This document shows, in pieces, positions 8,896-45,947 of a stretch of DNA of 55,082 nucleotides. Below the pieces are notes generated by a model. That model saw nothing but the letters and a program-made list of their open reading frames with translations. It had not been told where the DNA came from and searched no databases. The translations under genes and the position numbers were made by a program. Source of the DNA: a virus (Duplodnaviria > Caudoviricetes); the IMG/VR virus record IMGVR_UViG_3300025890_003136, positions 1 to 55,082 of that record; one strand, 5' to 3'. Each line of letters opens with the position of its first letter. The stretch's first letter is position 1.

Positions 8896-8924
8896 ATTAT
8901 AACACAAATTTTGGTAGTTGTCAA
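8896..8924 (-). promoter_or_regulatory. Sigma70 consensus promoter, probably leaderless uvsE mRNA
   Basis: TTGACA-17 bp-TATAAT, then 5 nt to ATG; no SD. Confidence 0.8.
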
Positions 8925-9496
8925 ACATACATTGTATTGAAACTAATGGTTATTCTTTCATCAGTTTGATTAGGATTGGTGTAATGTTCTAACCAACTAG
9001 GAAATAGATATAATGCACCTTGTTCACAAGGGACTTCAACATTTTTTAAATTATATTCTGTGTTCTTTACAAAGAACTCATGCATTCTATAAGGATCTGT
9101 TGGACTTTTAAAATTTAAGCCTGCACTGTCCTTGTCTGCTTTCACATAATATGCCGCACTCAATACACTGACTTCATGTCTGTGTAAATTTACAGATTGT
9201 CCTTTTTGTAAAATATTAAACCAACTCATACTAATTTTAATATTATTGCCTAAACCAATCTTATCACAATACACTTCAACAGCCTTTTGAAAATCTGCTT
9301 TTAAGTCTTTTAAATCTTCGTGGTCTAAAATGTGTTTGTCACTTTTCATGTAACTGCTTTGAGCTCCAGATACCAGTGCATGTGATCCTGTGTCCCATGT
9401 TTTAATTAATTCTAACAGTTTAGCATTATCTTTGTGACTGGCAAAATCAAATTTTAACACAGGCGTAGGGAACATATTTGCTATGTTGTAATTCAT
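8921..9496 (-). CDS. 2OG-Fe(II) oxygenase (TIGR02466-like)
   Basis: FPTP, SWFN, HRH, LFPSWLEH, RITISFN; start moved to ATG 9496 (ATGA overlap). Confidence 0.85.
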   Translation of the reverse strand: MNYNIANMFPTPVLKFDFASHKDNAKLLELIKTWDTGSHALVSGAQSSYMKSDKHILDHEDLKDLKADFQKAVEVYCDKIGLGNNIKISMSWFNILQKGQSVNLHRHEVSVLSAAYYVKADKDSAGLNFKSPTDPYRMHEFFVKNTEYNLKNVEVPCEQGALYLFPSWLEHYTNPNQTDERITISFNTMYV

Positions 9497-10206
9497 TTCC
9501 AATTCTCCTTGCACCAGGGATCCTGGCAATGTTTAGGTTGGGGATCTCCATGAAATACAGCAATGGATGTTTGTGGATGTATCTTTGGTACTCCTGGTGA
9601 AATAAAATCTTTTAATCCATCTTTGTTTCGCACCATTGGTGGCTTGCCACGCATCTCCCATTTGTAACTCATTATCCATTCATCGGGCCAAAAATTAAAA
9701 TCATTTTTTACTTGAGCATACAGCCAATCTTGATCTCCATGAAACCTACGCACAGGTGCGGCTGGATTTTTTATAAAGTCTCTGTAAATTTGTGGATGTT
9801 GTCCAATGTTCCATCTTACCACACTGCTGTTGAATCTATCCCATTTAGGATTATTACATCTATTGAAATCTCTTATTACACAAAATTCATTGGGTTTGTA
9901 AGTTAACAAATTGTCAATGCTTCTAAACACTATCACATCAAGATCAATGTATAGAACAGTGCCTTGTGGGTCTTCCAAAGGTAAACTGGGATTGAATAAT
10001 AGAGGTTTGTGCCACCAACCATTTACACCATAACTTTGTGCAATAGGCATAACTCTCACAGAACTGTTTAGTCCTGTTGGATTTTCTGTAAAGCAAACAA
10101 ATTCAAATGGCAAAGTGCAATACCTACGCACCATTTGTTCCAGTGTATTCACATACTCCGGACCGTACTTGTTACCCCATTTTAAACAAACAATGTAATT
10201 GATCAT
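9493..10206 (-). CDS. GT-A fold glycosyltransferase
   Basis: CLKWGNKY, YIDLD (DxD), FNSS, GDQD, FHGDPQP. Confidence 0.8.
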   Translation of the reverse strand: MINYIVCLKWGNKYGPEYVNTLEQMVRRYCTLPFEFVCFTENPTGLNSSVRVMPIAQSYGVNGWWHKPLLFNPSLPLEDPQGTVLYIDLDVIVFRSIDNLLTYKPNEFCVIRDFNRCNNPKWDRFNSSVVRWNIGQHPQIYRDFIKNPAAPVRRFHGDQDWLYAQVKNDFNFWPDEWIMSYKWEMRGKPPMVRNKDGLKDFISPGVPKIHPQTSIAVFHGDPQPKHCQDPWCKENWK

Positions 10207-14076: not shown

Positions 14077-14664
14077 TTAACCCACAAAAGCATTAAAACT
14101 AATGCTGATCCTTTCATTGTCTGTCAATTGCTGTTCAACACTATGTTCAATATAACTAGGAAAAAGCAACAGTCTGCCAGTTTTAGGTTTGAAACTGTGG
14201 ACTCTTCTCGTCATGTCATTAATAACAGATGGTGCTTTCCAGGGCCAATTGCTAATTTTATTCTGATCATGAAAAGAAATTCTAGCATCATTCTCTTCTG
14301 CTTGTACATAATAGATTCCGCTTATTGTGTCTGGAACATGATTGTGTGGTCCATGACTGCTGTATTTTCTATTGTTGTTAAACCAACTGCCGGTCATATT
14401 ACAATATCCTTCTAGTCCTAGATCTTTCACTGCTTCTACAACATTGCCCATGATAAAATTTTTCATTTCTTTGCATTCATCATAATCCAGTATGTTAGTG
14501 ATTGGACCATAACTGGTGTAACCTTCTTTGGTGTAGGTCATTTCCTTATTGGGATTTTTATTTTCAATATCTTTGAACATAGGCACAATTTTTTCTCTAA
14601 ATGCTTCTGCTTCACTGTATGTGAATTCCCATATAGGAACAGGAAATATTTCATGTCGTTTCAT
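14077..14664 (-). CDS. 2OG-Fe(II) oxygenase (TIGR02466-like)
   Basis: SWFN, HNH, SGIYY, LFPSYIEH, RISISFN. Confidence 0.85.
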   Translation of the reverse strand: MKRHEIFPVPIWEFTYSEAEAFREKIVPMFKDIENKNPNKEMTYTKEGYTSYGPITNILDYDECKEMKNFIMGNVVEAVKDLGLEGYCNMTGSWFNNNRKYSSHGPHNHVPDTISGIYYVQAEENDARISFHDQNKISNWPWKAPSVINDMTRRVHSFKPKTGRLLLFPSYIEHSVEQQLTDNERISISFNAFVG

Positions 14665-22023: not shown

Positions 22024-22072
22024 ACTTTATTATATAATATTTTTGTATGGTTTGTCAATAGTTAAGTCAAAA

Positions 22073-22098
22073 AAAAAGGCGACCGAAGCCGCCTTTTT
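22073..22098. terminator. Intrinsic terminator, potentially bidirectional
   Basis: AAAAAGGCG-accgaagc-CGCCTTTTT. Confidence 0.85.
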
Positions 22099-27853: not shown

Positions 27854-28498
27854 TTATTCTGTCAATGGTGGGAAGCCGTTTAATTTTGCCAGTTCGTTGT
27901 TGTCTTTGGTCATGGCAATTGAAGTGTTGAAACTCATTGATATTCTCACACTGTCCGAACGATTGCCTTCTACAGAATGCTTTACCCAACTAGGAAAGAT
28001 TAATACTCCACCACTTACAGGTTTGTACGTGGCTCTTACTGCACTGATATGATTTCTTTTTGGCATCACTCTTGGTAAGAAAAATTCTGCATTGTCTTCT
28101 CTTTCAAAGTGTATGTTACCCATATTTTCTTCTGGGATATCAATATAATACACACCACTCAACACACTGTCTCTGTGATCGTGTGGATGGTTGTAATCAC
28201 CCTTGCTGTTAATGTTCCACCAATAATCGCTTATTTGTAAGTCCATCAATCCTGCCATCTTGGTGCATTCGTTGATACAGTTTTGAATTGATTGAATAAA
28301 TCTTTCTATTGCAATTGGTCTTTCGTCTAATATTTCAAATGACTTACTTTGCCATCCGCCGTAATTGGATGCAATTTTGCCTTGCTCATCTTGTGCTTTT
28401 AATTTAATTACATATTCTTTTAACTCTGAATTGTTGATTTGTTTTAATTCTGAATTCCATATCACAGTAGGAAACCACAAGTCTGCTTTCATTGGCAT
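27854..28498 (-). CDS. 2OG-Fe(II) oxygenase (TIGR02466-like)
   Basis: SNYGGWQS, HDH, SGVYY, IFPSWVKH, RISMSFN. Confidence 0.87.
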   Translation of the reverse strand: MPMKADLWFPTVIWNSELKQINNSELKEYVIKLKAQDEQGKIASNYGGWQSKSFEILDERPIAIERFIQSIQNCINECTKMAGLMDLQISDYWWNINSKGDYNHPHDHRDSVLSGVYYIDIPEENMGNIHFEREDNAEFFLPRVMPKRNHISAVRATYKPVSGGVLIFPSWVKHSVEGNRSDSVRISMSFNTSIAMTKDNNELAKLNGFPPLTE

Positions 28499-28912: not shown

Positions 28913-29074
28913 TTATTCGTACAGTTTCTTCCAATGTGATTGTGGCGATTGTTCTTCGTTTTGGCTGTATGATTCTGGATATACAACTTCAGTAAGATTT
29001 GGTTTTAGTCTTCCTGATGTTCTTTCTTGACTTGCTGATTGCGTTCTCTCATTATGTACGATAAAGTCTTTTTT
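28913..29074 (-). other. Candidate -1 frameshift site and alternative C-terminus of the 521-aa protein
   Basis: TCA AAA AAA AAG; -1 frame open to TAA at 28913, ending YSQNEEQSPQSHWKKLYE. Confidence 0.5.
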
Positions 29075-30570
29075 TTTGAATCAGTGTCTTTGTTTTCCAA
29101 TTCATACTTGATTTCATCTTCGTCGAATCCGTCTGATTCTGGTTTCTTAACTTCTTTTGATACTTCTTTTTCTGCTTCTTCGATCATTTGGTTCCATTGT
29201 TCTAATGGCATTGGTGGTTCAACTGGCTCTGGTTTCCTGCCACCCAATGTTAAGCCTGCTCCAGTTAATCCAGGATGTACAACTTTTCCAGATTCAACTG
29301 GTTTTACTTCTACTTCTGTTTTGGATTCTTCTGCAATTATTTCTTTTTTGTATTCTTCTGCAATCTTTTCTAAATTCTCTTTTTCTTCTTGTTCACGTTT
29401 TTTAAATTCTTCAAGTTTTTCAGCACTAGGCATTGTAGATACTGGCTTCTTCTCAGCAATACTACTCAACTTGATTGGATTGCTTTTCACTGCTTTTTGT
29501 TTTTCAACAATCTCAGTTAAACTGTGTCCGCCCGATGGTGCAGGTGGAGTTGTTAGTGGAGTTGTAGGTGCAGGTGGAGTTGTAGGTGCAGGTGGTAATT
29601 CACCGTGCTTGTCTATGTATCTCCATCTAAAAGTGTATTGTGAAGCAATCAACAATAGCACTGCTAAAGGATCAAACACAAAAATAATTGTTATGATCAC
29701 CCATCTCACTGCTTCTTCTAATAAATTTCTATCTGCTTGTTCTCCATACACAAATTCAGCAATATATCTGATAGGTCCTACTTCAGATTCCAATTTCATT
29801 AACTGACCTTTTAACGGTTCTTGTTCTATGATTAGCACTTCTATTCTGCCTTGTGCATCAAAAATATTCTTTTCTGTTGTCTGTATAGTAATAGAATTCT
29901 TGTCCAATGTGTTGTTGATTTGAGCTCTTAATTTATTGATGTTTTCCTGAGCATCTGTAACTTGTTTATTGATTCTATCTCTTTCTGCTTGTTGACTTTT
30001 ACGCACTTCCAAGCCACGTTTGATATTGTCACCTTTAAACAAACCTTTACCTTGGTCTGTGTAGGCTTTAACATCTGCATCTAATACTTCTAATCGTTTG
30101 TATGCATCATCTATCTTCTTTTGTTCTATCTGGATGTCTTGATTAAACCTGTCATTACTGCCCGTGCTTTGCCCTGTTAGACGCTCTAAAACGTCCTTTT
30201 GTCGCTCTATGTAACTGTTTTCAGCTCTTACTTTATTGTCTATGATTTCGATTCTTTGAGTAACTGTGTCTGAAGATAAATTTTGATCCACGTGTGCTTT
30301 GGATAGGAATCCAAATATACCCATGGAGGTGATCAACATTAGAACTAATACTGCTATTGATAGATAGGTTCTAAGCCACCAAGCCGCTTTGCTCCAGTAT
30401 CTGTGTAACCATACTGCTGTTACCAGTTTGCCTACTTCTAAGGCAGTACCCATAATGATAATTGGCACAGCCGCCGCGGCGAATATTGCCACTAATCCAG
30501 CCACTGAATAATAGATTGCTACACCTGATATGGTGAGAGCCGTAAGAAATGTAATAAGTCCAAATAGCAT
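29005..30570 (-). CDS. Membrane-anchored coiled-coil protein
   Basis: Three N-terminal TMs (LEVGKLV, TSMGIFGFLSKAH), long coiled coil, EVGPIRY..FVFDPLAV TM, Pro-rich linker. Confidence 0.8.
   Translation of the reverse strand: MLFGLITFLTALTISGVAIYYSVAGLVAIFAAAAVPIIIMGTALEVGKLVTAVWLHRYWSKAAWWLRTYLSIAVLVLMLITSMGIFGFLSKAHVDQNLSSDTVTQRIEIIDNKVRAENSYIERQKDVLERLTGQSTGSNDRFNQDIQIEQKKIDDAYKRLEVLDADVKAYTDQGKGLFKGDNIKRGLEVRKSQQAERDRINKQVTDAQENINKLRAQINNTLDKNSITIQTTEKNIFDAQGRIEVLIIEQEPLKGQLMKLESEVGPIRYIAEFVYGEQADRNLLEEAVRWVIITIIFVFDPLAVLLLIASQYTFRWRYIDKHGELPPAPTTPPAPTTPLTTPPAPSGGHSLTEIVEKQKAVKSNPIKLSSIAEKKPVSTMPSAEKLEEFKKREQEEKENLEKIAEEYKKEIIAEESKTEVEVKPVESGKVVHPGLTGAGLTLGGRKPEPVEPPMPLEQWNQMIEEAEKEVSKEVKKPESDGFDEDEIKYELENKDTDSKKKTLSYIMRERNQQVKKEHQED
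29537..29596. repeat. Coding tandem repeat (PPAPTT units)
   Basis: Repeated ggtgcaggtggagttgta 18-mers. Confidence 0.75.
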
Positions 30571-30605: not shown

Positions 30606-31037
30606 TTACCTAATAAACTGCCAACCCCGATATGCAACATCCTTACAGGCAGTTTCCTTAAAGTCTCTTGCTCTGTCTTTCTTTTGAATTTGTGTAAAAA
30701 CAACTCTGCAATATCCACCACCATGCGGATAACTTGCAACCACTTTTACAAAACCATGTGTGTCTGCTTCAACATTGTGCCATGCAACCACTTTGCCTTC
30801 TTCCAAATTGTCCAATGCAAAGTACACAGCCTTATCCTGTTTCTTTTGATCTTGTTTGGATAACTTGCTCATGTTGTGTCTCATAAAGTTGTACCAAACT
30901 TCTACACTTGTTCCAGCATGGGTGTAGTTGTGACTAACACTCTTTTGACTGCTTAGACTTTTCGAAGTATTTGAGGTTGTTCCACAAGCAGTTAGTAATA
31001 AACTACTTAATAGGATTAACCATTTCCCACGAGCCAT
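30606..31037 (-). CDS. Lipoprotein, 17-kDa surface-antigen-like
   Basis: Lipobox LTAC; ALD...W.N..T.G...CR......AC..W; start uncertain. Confidence 0.7.
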   Translation of the reverse strand: MARGKWLILLSSLLLTACGTTSNTSKSLSSQKSVSHNYTHAGTSVEVWYNFMRHNMSKLSKQDQKKQDKAVYFALDNLEEGKVVAWHNVEADTHGFVKVVASYPHGGGYCRVVFTQIQKKDRARDFKETACKDVAYRGWQFIR

Positions 31038-31347
31038 CAAATTTTTGACAAACATATCCTTTTTTCCTTATCCATTGTTGACTGATATACATATCGAACC
31101 AATATTCTTTGCATTCCTTTGCTATGCCTGAATATGCTAAAAAGTCTTTTGCTCCGTCATCACACACCAAAGTTTCGACTATCTCCTTATTGATAACCTT
31201 TCCTTGAGTGTTCTTTGTAATAACAGTTTCCGTTTTAACATTACAGTATTGGTCTGACCACACTCCGCCTGCATGAGCAGTTGTTGAAAATATGATCAAT
31301 CCCAGTATGAGAAATGCAAGTGCGATTATGTAATAAACGTTTCGCAT
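31003..31347 (-). CDS. Secreted Cys-containing protein
   Basis: Signal peptide ending AHA; four Cys. Confidence 0.6.
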   Translation of the reverse strand: MRNVYYIIALAFLILGLIIFSTTAHAGGVWSDQYCNVKTETVITKNTQGKVINKEIVETLVCDDGAKDFLAYSGIAKECKEYWFDMYISQQWIRKKGYVCQKFDGSWEMVNPIK

Positions 31348-31348
31348 A

Positions 31349-31936
31349 TTATTGCTCAGATTGTTTCAATACTTTATCCGAAGTGTTGCTGATTTTTAAC
31401 TTACTCAATAATTTCTTGTTGTTTTTATCTTCAACAAGGTTAATTATATTTTCAACATCTTTCTTGGATATCTTCATTAAAACAAATGATCTGTAATTGC
31501 TCTTCTCAGTGTTGTATATTGTTAATTTCTTTTCAACAGAATATGTTCTTAACACAGTCTGTTTAATCATATTAACAATCACATCTTGAGCTTCTACTGT
31601 TCCAGTCATTGACTCAGAAGCACCTTTTTCAGAATAGTTGATAGATGTCTTATTGTTCATCTCACCATTTATTCTATCAGTGATCTTCGCTTTTGCTTTA
31701 AGAACTGCCTTCTTTTGCGACATTTCCATATCTGGAGATACTGCTACTGCTACCGCATAATAGAATCCATCTCTAAAGATAAACCCTTCTTTGCCAGTAT
31801 CTGCGTGGTTAAGATACCAAGCCGGTACCTTCTTTGCTTTTATGTTTTCTGTTGGTAACTGTACCATTCTACCCGAACATGCAGATAAAACAAAACCTAA
31901 TACAAGTACCATTATTATATTAATGTGCCTTTTCAT
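31349..31936 (-). CDS. Lipoprotein (LPP20-like)
   Basis: Lipobox LSAC; VPAWY; S.D.EM...KA...AK. Confidence 0.72.
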   Translation of the reverse strand: MKRHINIIMVLVLGFVLSACSGRMVQLPTENIKAKKVPAWYLNHADTGKEGFIFRDGFYYAVAVAVSPDMEMSQKKAVLKAKAKITDRINGEMNNKTSINYSEKGASESMTGTVEAQDVIVNMIKQTVLRTYSVEKKLTIYNTEKSNYRSFVLMKISKKDVENIINLVEDKNNKKLLSKLKISNTSDKVLKQSEQ

Positions 31937-34603: not shown

Positions 34604-34662
34604 AACAACAATATTTAGATATTGCAATTACAAACTTAAATGAAGACTTAATGAAAGTAAAA

Positions 34663-34684
34663 TGTGGGAGCCGAAACTCCCACA
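34663..34684 (-). terminator. Terminator/3' hairpin of tmRNA gene
   Basis: TGTGGGAG-tttcgg-CTCCCACA followed by TTTT. Confidence 0.75.
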
Positions 34685-34980
34685 CCTGATCTATTCTGTT
34701 GCCCGGCAGATCAACCGCCAAGTGGCCGGTATTAAGCGGCAACCAATTCCTGATCAGCGAATACGCTCATCGGAACCGTCACTTCTGGTTTAAATGCGTT
34801 TGCATTTGTAAATGATCCTTTACAGAGATCGGACTGATAAACTCCATGTGCTTTTCAACTCCGGTCGAAACCAAGTACACCCCCTCATAATAAACCAGAT
34901 TATTATAAATGAGTGTTGGTGGAGGTGGAGGGAGTCGAACCCTCGTCCCAAAAGTGTATTACACACACTTCAACGTCTAC
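34663..34980 (-). ncRNA. ssrA: Circularly permuted two-piece tmRNA
   Basis: Acceptor piece ...GACGAGGGTTCGACTCCCTCCACCTCCACCA ends at 34917; 32-nt spacer; coding piece starts GGGGGTG at 34884 (G3.U70 Ala pair); tag 34803-34732 ANAFKPEVTVPMSVFADQELVAA*; outer ends approximate. Confidence 0.93.
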
Positions 34981-35010
34981 AGTGTATTTAAACAGATTTT
35001 TTTGTAAATG

Positions 35011-38601: not shown

Positions 38602-40986
38602 TTATATTGTACAGGCATCACATTCGCCATCTTCCAAATCTGCTAGTTGTTCTTCCACGGTTGATTCTCCGTTTACTCCATTTGGATGAGCACCATTCAC
38701 CTTTGCTGACATTGTGTCTATGCCTGCTGGTTGCACATCTTCTTCTTCACCTTTGAAGTCATAAGTGTTTTGATAGTAACTTGTTTTCCAACCATATTTG
38801 TATGCTGACAGCATGTCTTGTGCCATTGCTGAAATAGGCACTTCGTTGTTGTCATAGTGCAATGGATTGTAACTCCAATTGCCTGATATGGCTTGATCAA
38901 AATATTTCTGCATCATAGCAACCACATTGATGTAACCTGTGTTGTCTGGCATATCCCAAAGCAATGTGTAAGCATTTTTAAGTTTAGGATAGCCTGGTGC
39001 TATTTGTTTTAGTGGACCTTTTTTACTTTTCTTAATTGATAGCAATGCTCTTGGTGGTTCAATACCATTTGTTTCGTTACTAACAACGGAAGAACTTTCT
39101 GAAGGCATCTGTGCTGACAGTGTGCTGTGTCTCAGTCCATGCTTGGCAATGTCTTTTCTCAACGCCTCCCATGCATATCTTTGTTTGTGTGGCACAATTT
39201 CGTCAATTTCTTTCTTGTAATGATCAATTGGCAATAAACCATCTGCATATTTTGTTTGTTTAAATCCTTCACAAGCACCTTTTTCCTGTGCAATCAAGTT
39301 GCTGGCTTTTAGTAGATAGAATTGAAATGCTTCAGACAGTCTGTCTACAGAATCCCAAGCACCTTTCTCATGATATTTGTGTCCTTGTTTTGCTAGGTAG
39401 TGTGCTAGTCCAATATATCCTATGCCTAAACTTCTTCTTGATTTTGTAGATATCTCTGCCGCTTTAACTGGATAATCTTGATATTCTATAATTTCTTCCA
39501 ATGCTCTAACTGCCAACTCACATAAGTTTTCTAAATCTTCAAGGTTGTTAAGTTGTCCTACATTGATTGCACTCAAGATACACAATGCTATTTCTCCTTG
39601 CGAATCATCTATTGCACTGATAGGCGTTGTGGGCAGTGTGATCTCTTGACACAAATTACTCATTGATACTTTGTCTTTGAAAGATGAGTGACTGTTTGCA
39701 TGGTCAATGTTCATGATGTAAATTCTGCCTGTTTCTGCTCTTTCTTTCAACAAGTCGGAAAATAAATCTTGTGCTGGAATTGACTTCTTATTGACTGATG
39801 AATCTTTTTCATATTTTTTATACAGTGCGTCAAATTTATCTGTACCGAATGCATCATACAATCCTGGTGCATCATGTGGTGAGAATAATGTAATATCTTC
39901 ATCGTTCATAAATCTTTCATAGAACATTTTAGATATCTGTATTGAATAATCCAACTTACGTACTCTGTTGTCTTCTGTGCCTTTGTTGTTCTTAAGCACA
40001 AGGATGTCTTCAATCTCTTGGTGCCATATAGGAAAGTGTACAGTTGCTGATCCGCCACGCACACCATTCTGTGTACAACATCTCACAGTTGATTCGAATT
40101 TTTTAAGGAACGGAATGACTCCTGTGTGTTGGACCTCTCCTCCTCTTATTTTTGCATTGATACCTCTGATACGTCCTGCATTGATTCCTATACCTGCTCT
40201 TCTGGCAACATACAATCCAATTGCCATGTCACTTGAAAATATTGAAGGTAATGTATCATCTGAATCTATCAATACGCATGAAGCAAATTGTCTAATAGGA
40301 GTTCTTACTCCTGCCATTACTGGAGTTGGAATATTGATTTTAAATGTTGATACAGCATCATAGTATTTTTTAACATAACTCATTCTAGTTTTTGCTGGAT
40401 ATTCTGCAAACAGTGTTGCCGCAATCATCATGTACATGTCTTGTGGAGTTTCAAATAAATCTCCTGATGATCTATCTTGCACAAGATATTTGTCTACAAC
40501 TTGTCTTAAACCTGCATATGTAAAATCAAGATCTCTTTCTCTCTTGATCCATGTATTCATTTTTTTAATTTCTGTTTTATTGTATTTTTCTACAATGCCT
40601 TTATCGTAAACACCTGCTTTAATATTTCTTAAAATTAGTTTTAACAAAGGCATGTATTCATATTGACCATGTGCTTCTTTACGCACATCATATGAAAGTA
40701 ACCTTGCCGCGGCATATTGATAGTTAGGTGCTTCTAATGAAATAAGATCGTTTGCTGAACGCACTAAAATTTGTTGAACTTCTTTTGTGGTCATGCCATC
40801 GTAGAATTGTATGTTGGCATTAATTTCTATTTGTGATGAAGATACACCTGCTAATCCTTCACAGGCTTCTTCCACAACAAAATGAATTTTGTCTATGTCT
40901 AATGGCTCTGCTCGTCCATCTCTTTTCTTAATTTTAATTGCCGATGTGTTGATGATTGCTTCTTTAGTCGACGTATTCAATTCCAT
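38602..40986 (-). CDS. nrdA: Class Ia ribonucleotide reductase alpha subunit
   Basis: ATP-cone, PTPVMAG, FASC, SNLCQEI, KTSYY, C-terminal CDAC. Confidence 0.97.
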   Translation of the reverse strand: MELNTSTKEAIINTSAIKIKKRDGRAEPLDIDKIHFVVEEACEGLAGVSSSQIEINANIQFYDGMTTKEVQQILVRSANDLISLEAPNYQYAAARLLSYDVRKEAHGQYEYMPLLKLILRNIKAGVYDKGIVEKYNKTEIKKMNTWIKRERDLDFTYAGLRQVVDKYLVQDRSSGDLFETPQDMYMMIAATLFAEYPAKTRMSYVKKYYDAVSTFKINIPTPVMAGVRTPIRQFASCVLIDSDDTLPSIFSSDMAIGLYVARRAGIGINAGRIRGINAKIRGGEVQHTGVIPFLKKFESTVRCCTQNGVRGGSATVHFPIWHQEIEDILVLKNNKGTEDNRVRKLDYSIQISKMFYERFMNDEDITLFSPHDAPGLYDAFGTDKFDALYKKYEKDSSVNKKSIPAQDLFSDLLKERAETGRIYIMNIDHANSHSSFKDKVSMSNLCQEITLPTTPISAIDDSQGEIALCILSAINVGQLNNLEDLENLCELAVRALEEIIEYQDYPVKAAEISTKSRRSLGIGYIGLAHYLAKQGHKYHEKGAWDSVDRLSEAFQFYLLKASNLIAQEKGACEGFKQTKYADGLLPIDHYKKEIDEIVPHKQRYAWEALRKDIAKHGLRHSTLSAQMPSESSSVVSNETNGIEPPRALLSIKKSKKGPLKQIAPGYPKLKNAYTLLWDMPDNTGYINVVAMMQKYFDQAISGNWSYNPLHYDNNEVPISAMAQDMLSAYKYGWKTSYYQNTYDFKGEEEDVQPAGIDTMSAKVNGAHPNGVNGESTVEEQLADLEDGECDACTI

Positions 40987-41011
40987 TGTATTCCTATTCT
41001 TATTAATTCTA

Positions 41012-41494
41012 TTACGTATTTATCGGTTCTTGTATATGGGTAGTATATTGTAGAATATAGTTTTTGTCAAACTCTGATTTGCTTAATTTTGCCATACTGT
41101 GCGTGTCTATTAAACTGTTATTCATTTCAATAATGTAATTAAACTTATGGTTGTTTGAACTATCTTCCTTCTTATAAACTGTATGTATCTTAACATTTTC
41201 ATCTTTAAAATTATCAGTTAATAAAACAGTATAACTGACTAATAAAGAAATGTCAACAAGATCATATTCATTTTTTTCAATCAATTGCCATCCATCCAGC
41301 CAGGTGTCTCTTTTGTAGATATTGGTGTTGGTTTTGGTTCTTGGACAATATTGAAATATGTTGACCAAGACATCAACAGGATCTTCTACTTCATTGATTA
41401 AATTACGTATGCTTTGCCAGTCTTCAAGACGTTCGGTATAGTCACCGTAAAAAATATTAGGCTTATGAGATATTTTGAATTTGAATTGTGACAT
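41012..41494 (-). CDS. Hypothetical protein
   Basis: 160-aa ORF; start uncertain. Confidence 0.55.
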   Translation of the reverse strand: MSQFKFKISHKPNIFYGDYTERLEDWQSIRNLINEVEDPVDVLVNIFQYCPRTKTNTNIYKRDTWLDGWQLIEKNEYDLVDISLLVSYTVLLTDNFKDENVKIHTVYKKEDSSNNHKFNYIIEMNNSLIDTHSMAKLSKSEFDKNYILQYTTHIQEPINT

Positions 41495-43073
41495 TGGCTA
41501 ATTCTGATGAATTCACCGGAGCAGGATTAATTGCTTCAATCACTAGAGTTTCGAAATCAGTGTCTGCGTTCAAATCATTTAGTGTAACTTGAAAGTTCAA
41601 TCCATCTGCTTTATCTCCTTGGAAATCATAATCGTCACTGATATGGCTTGTATTATTTTCTTTGTCTATTATTATTGTAAGAGTGCCTTTTCTCATTCCT
41701 GTGTCTACTGTGTTTTTGTAAAGATAATTCATATGAATTGTTTTGCTTGTGTCTGCTGGTAATCTTAAAAAATCAGTGTATGCATTTAATTGTCCAATAT
41801 TAAATTTATTGGTAAAATTAAAGTTGCCTGAATATGATCCTTCTACTTCTGTGATGTAAGCGATGTTGTTGAAGTTGCGTATCATTGCGTTTGTTCTAGC
41901 AAAGAAATCATTTTGAGTAACATTTTGATTGCTTTCAAATTTAATCACACTGTGAACTGGTGCAGTGTCTAGTCCAGCATCATTACCAACTTTTAAAAAG
42001 TTGTTTGCTTGACTGATATTGCCTGCTCCATTTTTAATCCAAATACCTTGTTGATTGATTTCATTAAATTTTGAATTGCTAACAGTGTTGTTGACTGGAC
42101 CTGTTGCTTGTCCAACAGCACCTAGCACAGTGTCTTTTCCAAATACAACTCCGTATCCACATTCTTCAATCATAGAATTATCAAATGTGTTGTGTACAAT
42201 ATCATCATCGCTTGATACTGCATATGAAAAATTAGATATTTTAATTTTTTCAAATTTATTGTCTTTGGATGTTACTGGAGTAGATGTTGCTTCTAATAAA
42301 ATTCCAATTTGTGTTGCCACCAATGCGGCTCCTTGTGCCTGAACCCATGGACCTTTGATGTTGATGTCTGTGAATGAACTGTTTTTACAACTTGCTAATT
42401 TTAATCCTGGTTGTGTGGTGTTGCTATCAAGAGTCAATCCTTTTAATTCAATATTGGTTGCTTGATTCAATGAAGTTGTTTGTGCCGCAATACCTTCGCC
42501 ATTGATTGTTTCTAACACAGGAAAAACTCCTGTTTGATTTATTACAGTTTTGTCACTGCCGTCGCCAATGATCGAAGCATGAGGAGGTAATTTTAAACTG
42601 TTTGTAATTTTGTATAATCCTGCAGATAATTTTAGTGTGATTCTTTTTTTGTAGTTGTCTGCATCTTGTGAACTGCTCCAAGGAAGAAACAGTTGATCAA
42701 TCGCTCTTTGCAATGCTAGAGTGTCATCTGTTGTGCCATCACCTACTGCACCAAAAGATGTAGCATTGATAATATCATCTAGTCTTGATTGTAAACTTCT
42801 TTTGATAGGAGTGGCTGAAGTGGCACCTGTTTGTATGTTTGAACCATTGCGATAAGTGTATTGATCACTCAACGTGAACAAGTTATCATGTTCTGTTAAT
42901 ACTTTAGAATTGCCTACTGCTGGAGCACCTTCAGACACAGCACCATTACCTATGTAAAGTTCTTGTGTGTCCACTGCCCAACCTAGTTCTCCGCCCGCTA
43001 GTTGTGGTAATCCAGAACCTAGGTTCTTTCTACCTCTTCTAATCTGAATTCTTGATATTGATACAATTGCCAA
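41463..43073 (-). CDS. Tail/baseplate protein with pectate-lyase-like beta-helix
   Basis: QIRRG..LAGGELGWAVDT N-terminus; FGAVGDGTTDDT.ALQRAI; AGLYKI. Confidence 0.75.
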   Translation of the reverse strand: MAIVSISRIQIRRGRKNLGSGLPQLAGGELGWAVDTQELYIGNGAVSEGAPAVGNSKVLTEHDNLFTLSDQYTYRNGSNIQTGATSATPIKRSLQSRLDDIINATSFGAVGDGTTDDTLALQRAIDQLFLPWSSSQDADNYKKRITLKLSAGLYKITNSLKLPPHASIIGDGSDKTVINQTGVFPVLETINGEGIAAQTTSLNQATNIELKGLTLDSNTTQPGLKLASCKNSSFTDINIKGPWVQAQGAALVATQIGILLEATSTPVTSKDNKFEKIKISNFSYAVSSDDDIVHNTFDNSMIEECGYGVVFGKDTVLGAVGQATGPVNNTVSNSKFNEINQQGIWIKNGAGNISQANNFLKVGNDAGLDTAPVHSVIKFESNQNVTQNDFFARTNAMIRNFNNIAYITEVEGSYSGNFNFTNKFNIGQLNAYTDFLRLPADTSKTIHMNYLYKNTVDTGMRKGTLTIIIDKENNTSHISDDYDFQGDKADGLNFQVTLNDLNADTDFETLVIEAINPAPVNSSELANVTIQIQNIS

Positions 43074-43128: not shown

Positions 43129-43812
43129 TTAAACTGCGTGTTTAATATAATACTCTTCTACTCTACGCCACCACTGATCTTTGTATTTGCTGTAATTTAG
43201 AGGGGTAATATCAAATTGTTGGTATGTAAAATCCCTAGCACACATGAACACGTGCCCTTCTTTGATATCTGTATTGTAAATTTCATTGTGTGCTTCGGCA
43301 TAAGCCACCAACTGTAAAAAATAATCTTCGATCCATTCTTTCTTTTTAGGCTTGTTGGTCTGTTTAAAGTCAATGATGCAAGGTGCTCCTTTGTACTCTC
43401 CAACACAATCTGTGGTGCCTGCATAAATTTTAGGAAAGTAAAGTCCAATTTCTGATCCCCATATTTCATTAACATCTACCAATGCATTTTTGTACACAAC
43501 TTGTGCCATTTCAAATGCTTGTTTGGCATAAGGATTAGATCCTGGAGAAGGCCATTCGCCTAGTTCAATATAGTCTTCAAGGTATTTGTGCATTCTTGTT
43601 CCTATGCCTGCGGCTTCTGTGGTAATACGTTTTGCATTTTGTTCACCAACTCTTTTGCGCCATTCTATGAGATGTGTTTTATCTTTGGTTGCGTCTAATA
43701 TTGTGGTTACACTTGCCACAGCACTGCCATCTGGACATTGGTAAACTCTTTTTCCATTAAGAGAGGTTCGTGATAATTTTTTGTAATCTATTTTATTTGT
43801 AATTAAGGTCAT
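43129..43812 (-). CDS. PD-(D/E)XK exonuclease
   Basis: SVTTIL, GT.MH, AGTTD, IIDFK, QL.AY. Confidence 0.85.
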   Translation of the reverse strand: MTLITNKIDYKKLSRTSLNGKRVYQCPDGSAVASVTTILDATKDKTHLIEWRKRVGEQNAKRITTEAAGIGTRMHKYLEDYIELGEWPSPGSNPYAKQAFEMAQVVYKNALVDVNEIWGSEIGLYFPKIYAGTTDCVGEYKGAPCIIDFKQTNKPKKKEWIEDYFLQLVAYAEAHNEIYNTDIKEGHVFMCARDFTYQQFDITPLNYSKYKDQWWRRVEEYYIKHAV

Positions 43813-44392
43813 TTTTTATTGTTTCACTGTTGAATGCGAAACTCATCCTATTGTTGGTTGTACTTAACACATGACTGACATAGTGCCAGAGCCATGATGG
43901 AAAGTATACACATTGATTTAGTTGTGGTTGCACACTTACTCGGTCACTATTGAATTCATTTGTTTGTTCAATTATGCTACTCTTGAACACATAACTCATT
44001 TGATTGTTTGGATTGATGAATGTAAGTGGAGCACTGCCTTTATCAGCAACGGGCCAATACACAGCACTGAACACACCGTCCACGTGTCTGTGAGGTGATT
44101 CAATGGCACTGTTATCACTGCCATCATTTACCCAGAGACTGGAAACTTTTTGTGTGTGTGAATTTGATAATCCCATTTGTGAATGCAGTTCATTAAAACC
44201 AATTTCAATTTTATCAATCAGTTCTTTCAGCATGGGGTCACTTTTATCTAGGTGATTACTGTCAGTTGACTTATAATTTTTTGTACCATTAAAATTTATT
44301 TCCTGTTTAGCCCAAGATATCAATTGTTCTCTGTTTGCGATGTCTATGTTTTCAACAGCCAGAAAACTGCTAAAGATTGGATTAACTTTCAT
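43793..44392 (-). CDS. 2OG-Fe(II) oxygenase (TIGR02466-like)
   Basis: WVN, HRH, SAVYW, FPSWLWH, RMSFAFN. Confidence 0.85.
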   Translation of the reverse strand: MKVNPIFSSFLAVENIDIANREQLISWAKQEINFNGTKNYKSTDSNHLDKSDPMLKELIDKIEIGFNELHSQMGLSNSHTQKVSSLWVNDGSDNSAIESPHRHVDGVFSAVYWPVADKGSAPLTFINPNNQMSYVFKSSIIEQTNEFNSDRVSVQPQLNQCVYFPSWLWHYVSHVLSTTNNRMSFAFNSETIKNDLNYK

Positions 44393-44430: not shown

Positions 44431-44760
44431 TTATGTGCGTTTTTTGGTTGCTCTCTTTGCCATGGTGTTTAAACTGGCAGAGCGGTCACCTTTTTTTGTA
44501 GGAATGTTTGGTTCTTCAGCGTCAGTGTCAAGTGTGATACCTGACTTGTCAAATGTTTTGATCATTTTTTTGATTGAAGAATTCTTGTTGTAGAGATTTT
44601 TAAAACTGTCGTGATTGATTGAGAAGCCTCCGACGTTGGTCATTATCTTGTTCAACGCATCAAAAGACAAGTATGCTTTTTGATTGCGTGAATCAGCACT
44701 GCTGATTAAATTTCTAAGAACTTGAATTAACTCTGCGCCTGAGGCTTCAGAAATTAAGCC
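44431..44760 (-). CDS. Head-cluster reading frame without a good start; probable -1 frameshift extension of the upstream gene
   Basis: Frame open from GGC at 44760 (GLISEASGAELIQVLRNL...) to TAA at 44431; first canonical start is a TTG 30 codons in. Confidence 0.6.
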   Translation of the reverse strand, partial: GLISEASGAELIQVLRNLISSADSRNQKAYLSFDALNKIMTNVGGFSINHDSFKNLYNKNSSIKKMIKTFDKSGITLDTDAEEPNIPTKKGDRSASLNTMAKRATKKRT

Positions 44761-45947
44761 TTTTTTTTTGAACTTGTTGAAAGTGTTTCTGCTAGTCTTC
44801 TAGACAAATGAATCATTGATTCTCTTTTGCTTCTGTCTGCTGGTTCTTCACCGCCTGTTGCTGGTTCGCTTGCCGAAAAATCGTCTGCTTGATCTGGCAT
44901 GTCTGCATCAGCATCTGTTGTAGGTTCCATCTCTGGTTCCATAGTATCGCTGTCCGCTCCAATTGTATCTGGTGCTTGTTCGCCTGTCAGTACGGCTACG
45001 CCGCCTGTTAGTGATTCTCTTGTTGCTTCTAATGAAGTGTATAAAGATTCTAAACTTGGCTTCACTGCATTAGTAAATTGTTCAGATTGTTCTACTCCCA
45101 TTTCGTCTCTAATAGCATCTGCTAACTCTAGCATTGTTTCAGTTTGCATAGATGCTGTGTCTTCCATCCAACCAGTAATTTTATCAACCATGTCTTTAGC
45201 CGCCATTACCAATTGAGCTGATTCTTCTGCGCCTTCTTTAACTGCTTTTTTCTTTTTGTCTTGCACTGCTTTTTTCATAGGTTCTTTTTTATCCCCATCT
45301 TTGTCCATGTCTAAAAAATCTGGTTTTGCTTTTTCATTCATTGCTGTGGCTAATAAATCTTCTGCATCTTGAAGTGTAAATTCTTTATCGCCTACTTTAA
45401 ACTTGTCGCCTTTTTTCATGCCTGCCGCTTTGGCTTTTTGAACTGCGTCTGCGAAAGCATTGCCTTCCATTGGCTCATCTTTTTGTGATCCATCGTCTTC
45501 AAATTCGTTTTCAACTTTTTGTTTTGCATAGTGTAAAGCAGATGCTTCGTCACCTTGTGCTGTTGCCTGTCTTTTCTCTATGTCAGCGATCACAGCCTGC
45601 TTGTTCATTTTTAATGCTTCTTTGTCCATGTCAAAGTAGTCACCTACTATTTCATCTGCTTGGATTAAAATATCGTTTTGTAATTTTGCTTCTACTGTTC
45701 TGTCATTGATTGCAGAATCTAGTACGTCTAAAAACATTTTTTGCTTGTGGTAGTCTTCGTTGTGACTTAACCCATCAAAGGATTCATTTTGCTCTATGTT
45801 GACAATCTTGTCCAACACACTTGAACGAGCAGTTTCTAACTGTGCGTCTGTGAATTGATCTAATTGGATTGCTGAGCCAAACACTTTTGACAGTCTATCA
45901 TTCAACTGTTCTGTTGTTGCTTGGTGTCTAAATTGCTCTATTTTCAT
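44754..45947 (-). CDS. Putative prohead core/scaffold protein
   Basis: Acidic and helical; KPDFLDMDKDGDKKEPMKKA motif; ends SKKKA; TAAATA and SD upstream. Confidence 0.65.
   Translation of the reverse strand: MKIEQFRHQATTEQLNDRLSKVFGSAIQLDQFTDAQLETARSSVLDKIVNIEQNESFDGLSHNEDYHKQKMFLDVLDSAINDRTVEAKLQNDILIQADEIVGDYFDMDKEALKMNKQAVIADIEKRQATAQGDEASALHYAKQKVENEFEDDGSQKDEPMEGNAFADAVQKAKAAGMKKGDKFKVGDKEFTLQDAEDLLATAMNEKAKPDFLDMDKDGDKKEPMKKAVQDKKKKAVKEGAEESAQLVMAAKDMVDKITGWMEDTASMQTETMLELADAIRDEMGVEQSEQFTNAVKPSLESLYTSLEATRESLTGGVAVLTGEQAPDTIGADSDTMEPEMEPTTDADADMPDQADDFSASEPATGGEEPADRSKRESMIHLSRRLAETLSTSSKKKA

Follow-up and report, generated by a model that had tools for sequence, protein, structure and literature searches.

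A conserved run of nine adenines as a candidate frame-switch site that may give a phage membrane protein two alternative tails

Recoding at runs of A is well known, and the textbook recoding case in tailed phages is the frameshift of the tail-chaperone gene. The DNA analyzed here, referred to as the window, is a stretch of 55,082 nucleotides (nt) covering positions 1 to 55,082 of the IMG/VR virus record IMGVR_UViG_3300025890_003136 (Duplodnaviria; Caudoviricetes). Its minus strand holds a gene for a membrane protein of 521 amino acids (aa) with a run of nine A's (A9) near the 3' end. This tract is, with good confidence, a programmed frame-switch site through which the gene would make two proteins with different tails.

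Several described systems resemble this arrangement in part. The -1 frameshifting of Escherichia coli dnaX uses an identical heptamer in the correct phase and yields two products per gene, as proposed here; it employs an upstream Shine-Dalgarno-like element and a downstream stem-loop. The dnaX shift truncates the protein, whereas a shift at the present site would extend it and replace its tail, with no detectable stimulator. In RNA viruses, polymerase stuttering ('editing') is known from Ebola GP and paramyxovirus P/V; it is carried out by the virus's own RNA-virus polymerase, whereas transcription here would be templated by DNA. In potyvirus P3N-PIPO, the viral polymerase adds a base at a short A-run and another C-terminus results, much like the event considered here (PMC5009743; this paper, PMC3711429 and the tmRNA statement of PMC9004378 are cited from excerpts throughout).

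Runs of more than 7 A's are described as a signal of programmed transcriptional realignment, with the A9 of Thermus thermophilus dnaX as an example (PMC3711429, PMC5009743), and such runs typically have 9-11 A's, which fill the RNA-DNA hybrid (PMC3711429). T. thermophilus dnaX, the transposases of IS elements and type III secretion genes such as Shigella spa13 and mxiE likewise hold about nine A's within the gene and need no RNA stimulator; in such systems the products likewise share an N-terminus and differ in their C-termini, and the length of the run rather than its codon phase is conserved (PMC3711429, PMC5009743). The present case is unlike them in concerning genes of a double-stranded DNA (dsDNA) phage with alternative conserved motifs in overlapping frames, and in being known from sequence alone. 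No phage example of poly-A transcriptional realignment was found in the excerpts of the literature searched. The phage tail assembly chaperone G/GT is also recoded at the 3' end of a phage gene, giving a C-terminally extended fusion at a fixed ratio (PMC5009743). The 521-aa gene differs from it, as it is no tail chaperone, is not followed by a tape-measure gene and carries an A9 run instead of the varied heptamers of G/GT. In the excerpts of the literature searched, supplementary tables excepted, neither the membrane-protein family nor A-run recoding in pelagimyophages was found described, and the words 'frameshift' and 'slippage' have 0 occurrences in PMC9004378. A frame switch in a membrane-protein gene and in an unrelated gene is apparently undescribed so far.

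The elements of the membrane-protein gene are the following.

29005..30570, minus strand: membrane-protein gene, 0-frame product of 521 aa
29079-29068, minus strand: TCA AAA AAA AAG, candidate frame-switch site (A9 tract at 29077-29069, flanked by C and G)
29008..29067, minus strand: dual-coding overlap of 20 codons, 0 frame TLSYIMRERNQQVKKEHQED (conserved motif A), -1 frame DFIVHNERTQSASQERTSGR..
29007-29005, minus strand: 0-frame stop codon TAA
28913..29068, minus strand: -1 frame extension, 51 aa and TAA, without a start codon of its own
28925..28969, minus strand: conserved tail motif B, YSQNEEQSPQSHWKK, family consensus Y-x-Q-N-x-E-Q...[LI/H]-W/F

The A9 site lies 20 codons ahead of the 0-frame stop, and the slippery heptamer A_AAA_AAG (29074-29068) is in phase with the 0 frame. 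From the GAC at 29068, the -1 frame reads DFIVHNERTQSASQERTSGRLKPNLTEVVYPESYSQNEEQSPQSHWKKLYE (51 aa) and ends with TAA (28915-28913) and TAG (28912-28910), which are separated by 17 nt from the ATG (28896) of the next gene. This open reading frame (ORF) is bounded upstream by a TGA two codons ahead of the A-run and contains no ATG, GTG or TTG. The sequence thus confirms what a sequence-only reading of the window had described, namely TCA AAA AAA AAG close to the gene's 3' end and a -1 frame, lacking a start codon, that passes the 0-frame stop and continues to 28913. The +1 frame of the window meets a stop after 6 codons past the run's two Lys codons (KKRLYRT, then two stops). Downstream of the A-run, motif A follows the 0-frame pattern K-K-K-[TS]-x(0-2)-Y-[IM]-x-[KR]...Q-[IV]-x-K, then stop.

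Standard decoding would give the 521-aa protein with its Lys-rich end motif (SYIMRERNQQVKKEHQED). In some of the expression events, the frame would move to -1 at the A-run, and the last 20 residues would be swapped for 51 others, the distal part of which holds a conserved motif (..KPNLTEVVYPESYSQNEEQSPQSHWKKLYE); the predicted long isoform has 501 + 51 = 552 aa. RNA polymerase stuttering on the nine A's, with the addition of one A to some transcripts, would be the most likely route, and -1 ribosomal slippage on A_AAA_AAG an alternative or a contributor. The gene would then supply its membrane protein in two versions, set apart by a short peptide motif in the cytoplasm. The sequences themselves show the anatomy, how it is conserved, selection by frame and the true length of the run; that the long isoform is produced, in which ratio and by which mechanism, and what topology and function the protein has, is what we infer from them.

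Conservation was surveyed among 105 IMG/VR loci related to the membrane protein, which after removal of 11 duplicates and 9 truncated sequences gave 86 distinct sequences including the window. The tail was recognized by Y-x-Q-N-x-E-Q followed by W or F a few residues on. It was found in the -1 frame in 33 of the 86 (A9 in 28, A10 in 5) and in the main frame in 21, and was not present in 32; motif B thus occurs, in one frame or the other, in 54/86 family members. In all 33 sequences with a -1 tail, an A-run stands within 200 nt upstream, it is never shorter than A9, and no stop intervenes between run and tail. All 33 retain the same frame relation, which the A10 relatives keep because the preceding codon is CAA instead of NCA. 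In 18 of the 21 sequences with the tail in the main frame, the longest nearby A-run has at most 7 A's. The association of the A-run with a -1 tail is strong (Fisher P = 1.4e-11, uncorrected for phylogeny). Runs of at least nine A's are about 60 times denser in the last 250 nt of the family ORFs than in the rest of these loci (38 in 21.8 kb, compared with 14 in 481 kb). The conservation in the -1 frame and the in-frame fusion for which the sequence-only reading had suggested a search are therefore both found. Its central claim, a hidden C-terminus reached at the A-run, is supported: the tail is conserved with A9 or A10 in 33/33 sequences. As to the route, the comparative pattern leans to transcriptional slippage rather than to a ribosomal shift.

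The frame-split state is scattered over the family tree, which was built from the N-terminal 330 residues, and its members have N-terminal domains 34-85% identical to that of the window. Searches of cultured phages by blastn and tblastn with both A9-bearing genes and both of their extensions (the second gene, of 397 aa, is described below) gave no match for the tails or for the 397-aa gene, among records from which those nearest to the window's own genome may be missing. The N-terminal domain of the membrane protein matched Pelagibacter phage Mosig and phages of Stenotrophomonas, Flavobacterium, Salicola, Xanthomonas and Microcystis. In the homologues of Mosig, RAS14 and immuto, the tail motif was not found, and the examined stretches contained no A9 run.

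Codon comparison frame by frame, also suggested by the sequence-only reading, separates the overlap from the part beyond it. In the window's clade (7 distinct sequences), the changes within the overlap count as 9 synonymous and 3 non-synonymous by the 0 frame but as 0 and 12 by the -1 frame, and from this split the overlap is selected as 0-frame protein. Beyond the 0-frame stop, the same sequences show 9 synonymous and 10 non-synonymous changes when read in the -1 frame, compared with 5 and 14 when read in the 0 frame. T-ending codons that create -1 stops are used at 0 of 133 positions between the run and the 0-frame stop, compared with 1352/3432 (39%) upstream in the same genes, the 133 being codon pairs at which a synonymous T-ending choice would yield a -1 stop. 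When codons were resampled synonymously with protein and codon usage fixed, the -1 frame was open with a median probability of 0.14 per sequence. No slippery sequence is conserved at the 0-frame stops (GAC TAA A, GAA TAA A, GAA TAG A, TCT TAA C, CGA TAG G). Because the -1 frame is open across the overlap and nothing slippery is conserved at these stops, the frame change must occur at the A-run. A shift site near the 0-frame stop was considered and rejected, as a conserved slippery sequence is lacking there and the avoidance of stops extends back to the run. In the short product the overlap would accordingly supply motif A; in the long one, where its -1 reading is only kept open, it would act as no more than a linker. 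Natural in-frame equivalents of the predicted long isoform support the proposal: the tail occurs without motif A in L180, L134, L117 and L155, and together with motif A in a single frame in L017, L127, L178 and L184.

The same signal was found in a second gene of the window, which encodes 397 aa and is unrelated to the first.

44754..45947, minus strand: 397-aa gene, ending ...TCA AAA AAA AAG GCT TAA
44760..44771, minus strand: 12-mer TCAAAAAAAAAG, identical to that of the membrane-protein gene, at this gene's 3' end
44434..44760, minus strand: 109-aa -1 extension, without a start codon, filling the gap to the next gene

This gene was surveyed in 81 sequences (the window and 80 loci), 68 of which were informative, with matches to both parts, and comprised 47 distinct junction sequences. 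The extension lies in the -1 frame behind A9 in 63/68 and behind A10 in 2/68. The remaining three are one sequence with A10 and the extension in frame (L073) and two (L093, L101) in which the run is absent and a separate gene, with a start of its own, encodes the extension. The earlier proposal that two unrelated genes share one signal is upheld by the identical 12-mer and by the 65 of 68 sequences that keep the arrangement; two unrelated genes in one phage are predicted to use one signal to join reading frames. The combination of 397 aa and 109 aa is similar to phage G/GT in logic only.

Two routes, which do not exclude each other, would account for the frame shift. Transcriptional slippage has roughly an even chance of being a route, and ribosomal frameshifting has a smaller though still appreciable one. 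The run has at least nine A's in every case, although six suffice for A_AAA_AAG, and the codon layouts of 32 distinct sequences with a -1 tail fall into two phases with the length kept (21 NNA AAA AAA AAG, 6 CAA AAA AAA A.. and 5 CAA AAA AAA AAG). The flanks of the run hold irrespective of phase, with C at -1 in 30/32 and G at +1 in 28/32. Among the additional A's is the third position of the preceding codon, whose meaning varies (Ser, Pro, Ala, Leu or Gln). In two relatives, L108 and L164, it is the tail that occupies the main frame, and an intact motif A lies in the +1 frame, which could be reached by the loss of one A and not by a -1 ribosomal shift; this would favor transcriptional slippage. 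On folding, no downstream structure reached significance (z = -0.30 and -1.21 for the membrane-gene site, -0.52 and -0.37 for that of the 397-aa gene), in line with the earlier remark that no stimulator is obvious, and no Shine-Dalgarno-like (AGGAGG-like) element was seen upstream of either site on reading the sequence. The constant length in any phase, the lack of a stimulatory structure and the swapped default frames of L108 and L164 together would favor transcriptional slippage over -1 ribosomal frameshifting.

Several observations weigh against a two-product gene switched by polymerase stutter. On the tree (quick search), 13 changes are needed to account for the frame-split state, and well-supported branches force at least 9 of these; the state is evolutionarily labile. 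The two-isoform design is not the only solution of the family, because some in-frame relatives hold motifs A and B in one frame (L017, L127, L178, L184), and the frameshifted isoform would be without motif A. The +1-frame motif A of L108 and L164 may, instead of being expressed, be a relic of recent origin. For the window alone, the -1 frame would be open by chance with a probability of 0.46, which is not small, and the open-frame test therefore draws its weight from the whole family. The two RNA-labelled sequencing runs comprise assembled contigs only, with A9 and a flat, DNA-like depth, and contigs drop minor variants. Finally, the heptamer stands in the phase for -1 ribosomal slippage in 32/32 distinct sequences with a -1 tail (A_AAA_AAG in 26, A_AAA_AAA in 6); both mechanisms fit the anatomy, and the comparative data are compatible with -1 ribosomal frameshifting.

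Purely translational recoding, with ribosomes slipping -1 on A_AAA_AAG of faithful transcripts, either as a dnaX-type tandem slip or by sliding on the Lys A-run, is accordingly a real if lesser possibility. Besides the phase of the heptamer, which is right in the window as in its relatives, it is consistent with A_AAA_AAG being the most shift-prone heptamer in E. coli (PMC5009743) and with AAG being the third Lys codon in the 21 + 5 sequences listed above. It leaves unexplained why the three A's beyond the heptamer need to be conserved, including the third base of the variable codon, and why the A-site AAG is missing in six lineages; neither a downstream structure nor an upstream Shine-Dalgarno-like element stands out, and L108 and L164 would demand a +1 or -2 shift.

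Phase variation at the DNA level, in which replication slippage would produce sub-populations of A9 and A10 genomes with one isoform per virion, is unlikely. DNA polymerase also slips on poly-A (PMC3711429), and the other state is seen in single relatives, as the A10 with the extension in frame in L073 at the 397-aa site and the A10 of L108 at the membrane-gene site. The difference in L108 is, however, a larger rearrangement and not one A. Contigs from four public runs (two studies) span both coding A9 sites with 0 differences; their consensus has nothing but A9 at these sites, and an indel contig is listed for neither coding A-run, even at a 1% share. Exactly A9 is kept in 63/68 informative sequences at the 397-aa site and in 28/33 at the membrane-gene site.

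It is very improbable that no recoding takes place and that the -1 tail is a dead frameshift remnant, or is conserved as a nucleotide-level signal, for instance for expression of the next gene. The 0-frame product is complete and conserved, and the 32 of 86 relatives without the tail motif count against recoding as well. The tail motif is nevertheless kept down to 34-40% identity of the N-terminal domain, with synonymous changes in the -1 frame, avoidance of stops over the overlap and constant company of a run of at least nine A's, and a remnant would decay. Hardly more credible is a tail made separately or at the 0-frame stop, from an ORF with a non-canonical start, by termination-reinitiation or by a shift at the stop codon, the last of which would place motifs A and B in one chain. 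A shift close to the stop would yield the same order as in L017 and similar in-frame relatives, motif A and then motif B, but the -1 ORF lacks all three start codons, the 0-frame stops lack a conserved slippery sequence, and avoidance of -1 stops back to the A-run would be needless for an event at the stop.

The homopolymer sequencing or assembly error that the sequence-only reading had raised, with a true run of A10 and a single 552-aa ORF, would fuse the frames with one extra A and is excluded, since four independent assemblies bridge the site identically, the same 0-frame tail closes 53/53 homologues from a large protein collection, the A9 and A10 variants of relatives hold the frame relation with a differing preceding codon, and the 0-frame tail is under purifying selection; the A9 run length is real DNA.

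The caution that A-runs are common in this genome is reversed by counting. A8 matches number 14 in the window against a shuffle mean of 26 (98/100 shuffles had at least 14), and A9 runs only four. The 12-mer TCAAAAAAAAAG occurs in 3 copies (22067 on the plus strand, 29068 and 44760 on the minus strand) against 0.12 expected, and 0/100 shuffles gave 3 copies. The copy at 22067-22078 (plus strand) is intergenic and is directly followed by GGCGACCGAAGCCGCC, a GC-rich hairpin, and a T-run; it looks like a bidirectional intrinsic terminator. This arrangement recurs in a 148-kb relative (L190). The fourth A9 (15332-15324, minus strand) belongs to a Lys-rich part of a 280-aa gene, where it forms three in-frame AAA codons, and serves as a negative control, its -1 frame hitting a stop at once. 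The five A9 runs of the 148-kb relative are the two sites, the terminator copy, the in-frame Lys run and one further TCA AAA AAA AAG. This last site (L189, G001:C1:34543-34551, minus strand) reads TCA AAA AAA AAG ACT in a 275-aa ORF, with 206 aa before the run and 69 after it; its -1 frame ends after KKKD (four codons), and the gene was not located in the window. It is possibly a dnaX-like truncating site.

Somewhat more speculatively, with a chance a little short of even, pelagimyophage-like marine phages may use TC-A9-G genome-wide, with polymerase stutter setting fixed proportions of two proteins for at least two unrelated genes per genome and for a third candidate in the 148-kb relative, and with the default isoform of the membrane family repeatedly toggled.

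By hydropathy, the 521-aa protein has hydrophobic segments at residues ~1-21, 25-47, 65-92 and 286-314, with a coiled-coil-like loop of ~190 residues between the third and the fourth and basic residues after the second and the fourth. By the positive-inside rule, we infer that the loop would be periplasmic and the C-terminal arm of ~200 aa, which holds both motifs, cytoplasmic. In large phages, conservation extends over the N-terminal 320 aa. No Pfam or PHROGs family was above threshold for this protein; Tetraspanin (PF00335) scored 23.6 bits against a cut-off of 32.1, below the gathering threshold, and was set aside. The protein atlas returned viral hypothetical clusters only, with weak coiled-coil and DUF4407 leads at TM < 0.5, and DUF4407 was rejected as a structure lead only (TM 0.36).

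The membrane gene is neighbored by lipoprotein-like genes and a 2OG-Fe(II) oxygenase gene. Just upstream, three small genes (30606-31936, minus strand) encode signal-peptide or lipobox-like N-termini (...LLLTAC..., ...VLSAC...), and one of them weakly matches the 17-kDa surface antigen family. The homologues of Mosig and immuto (a Flavobacterium phage) stand near glucosaminidase, holin and chitinase genes. From these neighbors, an envelope or lysis-related role of the membrane protein, or of a cassette that it may form with the three upstream genes, is a guess only.

Other features of the window concern the kinship and gene content of the phage. The phage is related to Pelagibacter phage HTVC008M and Methylophilales phage Melnitz, with a 643-aa protein that is 36% identical to that of the former and 31% to that of the latter, in both of which it is annotated as an adenylate/guanylate cyclase. 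Four paralogous 2OG-Fe(II) oxygenase genes (phrog_81) lie on the minus strand (8921-9529, 14077-14664, 27854-28498 and 43793-44392), near genes for QueD-like, ferredoxin-oxidoreductase-like and Hsp20 proteins and the 643-aa protein gene. ARAGORN reported a permuted (two-piece) transfer-messenger RNA (tmRNA) gene at 34641-35009 (minus strand) with the tag ANAFKPEVTVPMSVFADQELVAA, where read depth is raised in all four runs; Melnitz-like marine phages carry tmRNA genes (PMC9004378). In contigs of all four runs, 38606 is joined to 42242 with GATA between, at a depth of 68-183, above that of the window itself. More abundant relatives probably lack the 38606-42242 stretch, which holds the gene for the ribonucleotide reductase (RNR) large subunit and its neighbors, or have it replaced.

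If the frame switch operates as proposed, it would be a second, widespread case of recoding in tailed phages beside the tail-chaperone frameshift. It would concern membrane proteins that form a large family in uncultured phages of marine and fresh waters, and an unrelated gene of the same genomes. In both, a conserved C-terminal module systematically escapes gene callers; for the membrane protein, 53/53 database entries stop short of it. Annotation pipelines for marine phages should join the two frames. The conserved and presumably cytoplasmic peptide motif Y-x-Q-N-x-E-Q...W is flagged by the comparison, and the natural variants in phase, run length and default frame offer a clean system to separate transcriptional from ribosomal slippage. 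Should the transcriptional route be true, dsDNA phages would have in these genes a programmed slippage of transcription that can be likened to the editing sites known from RNA viruses.

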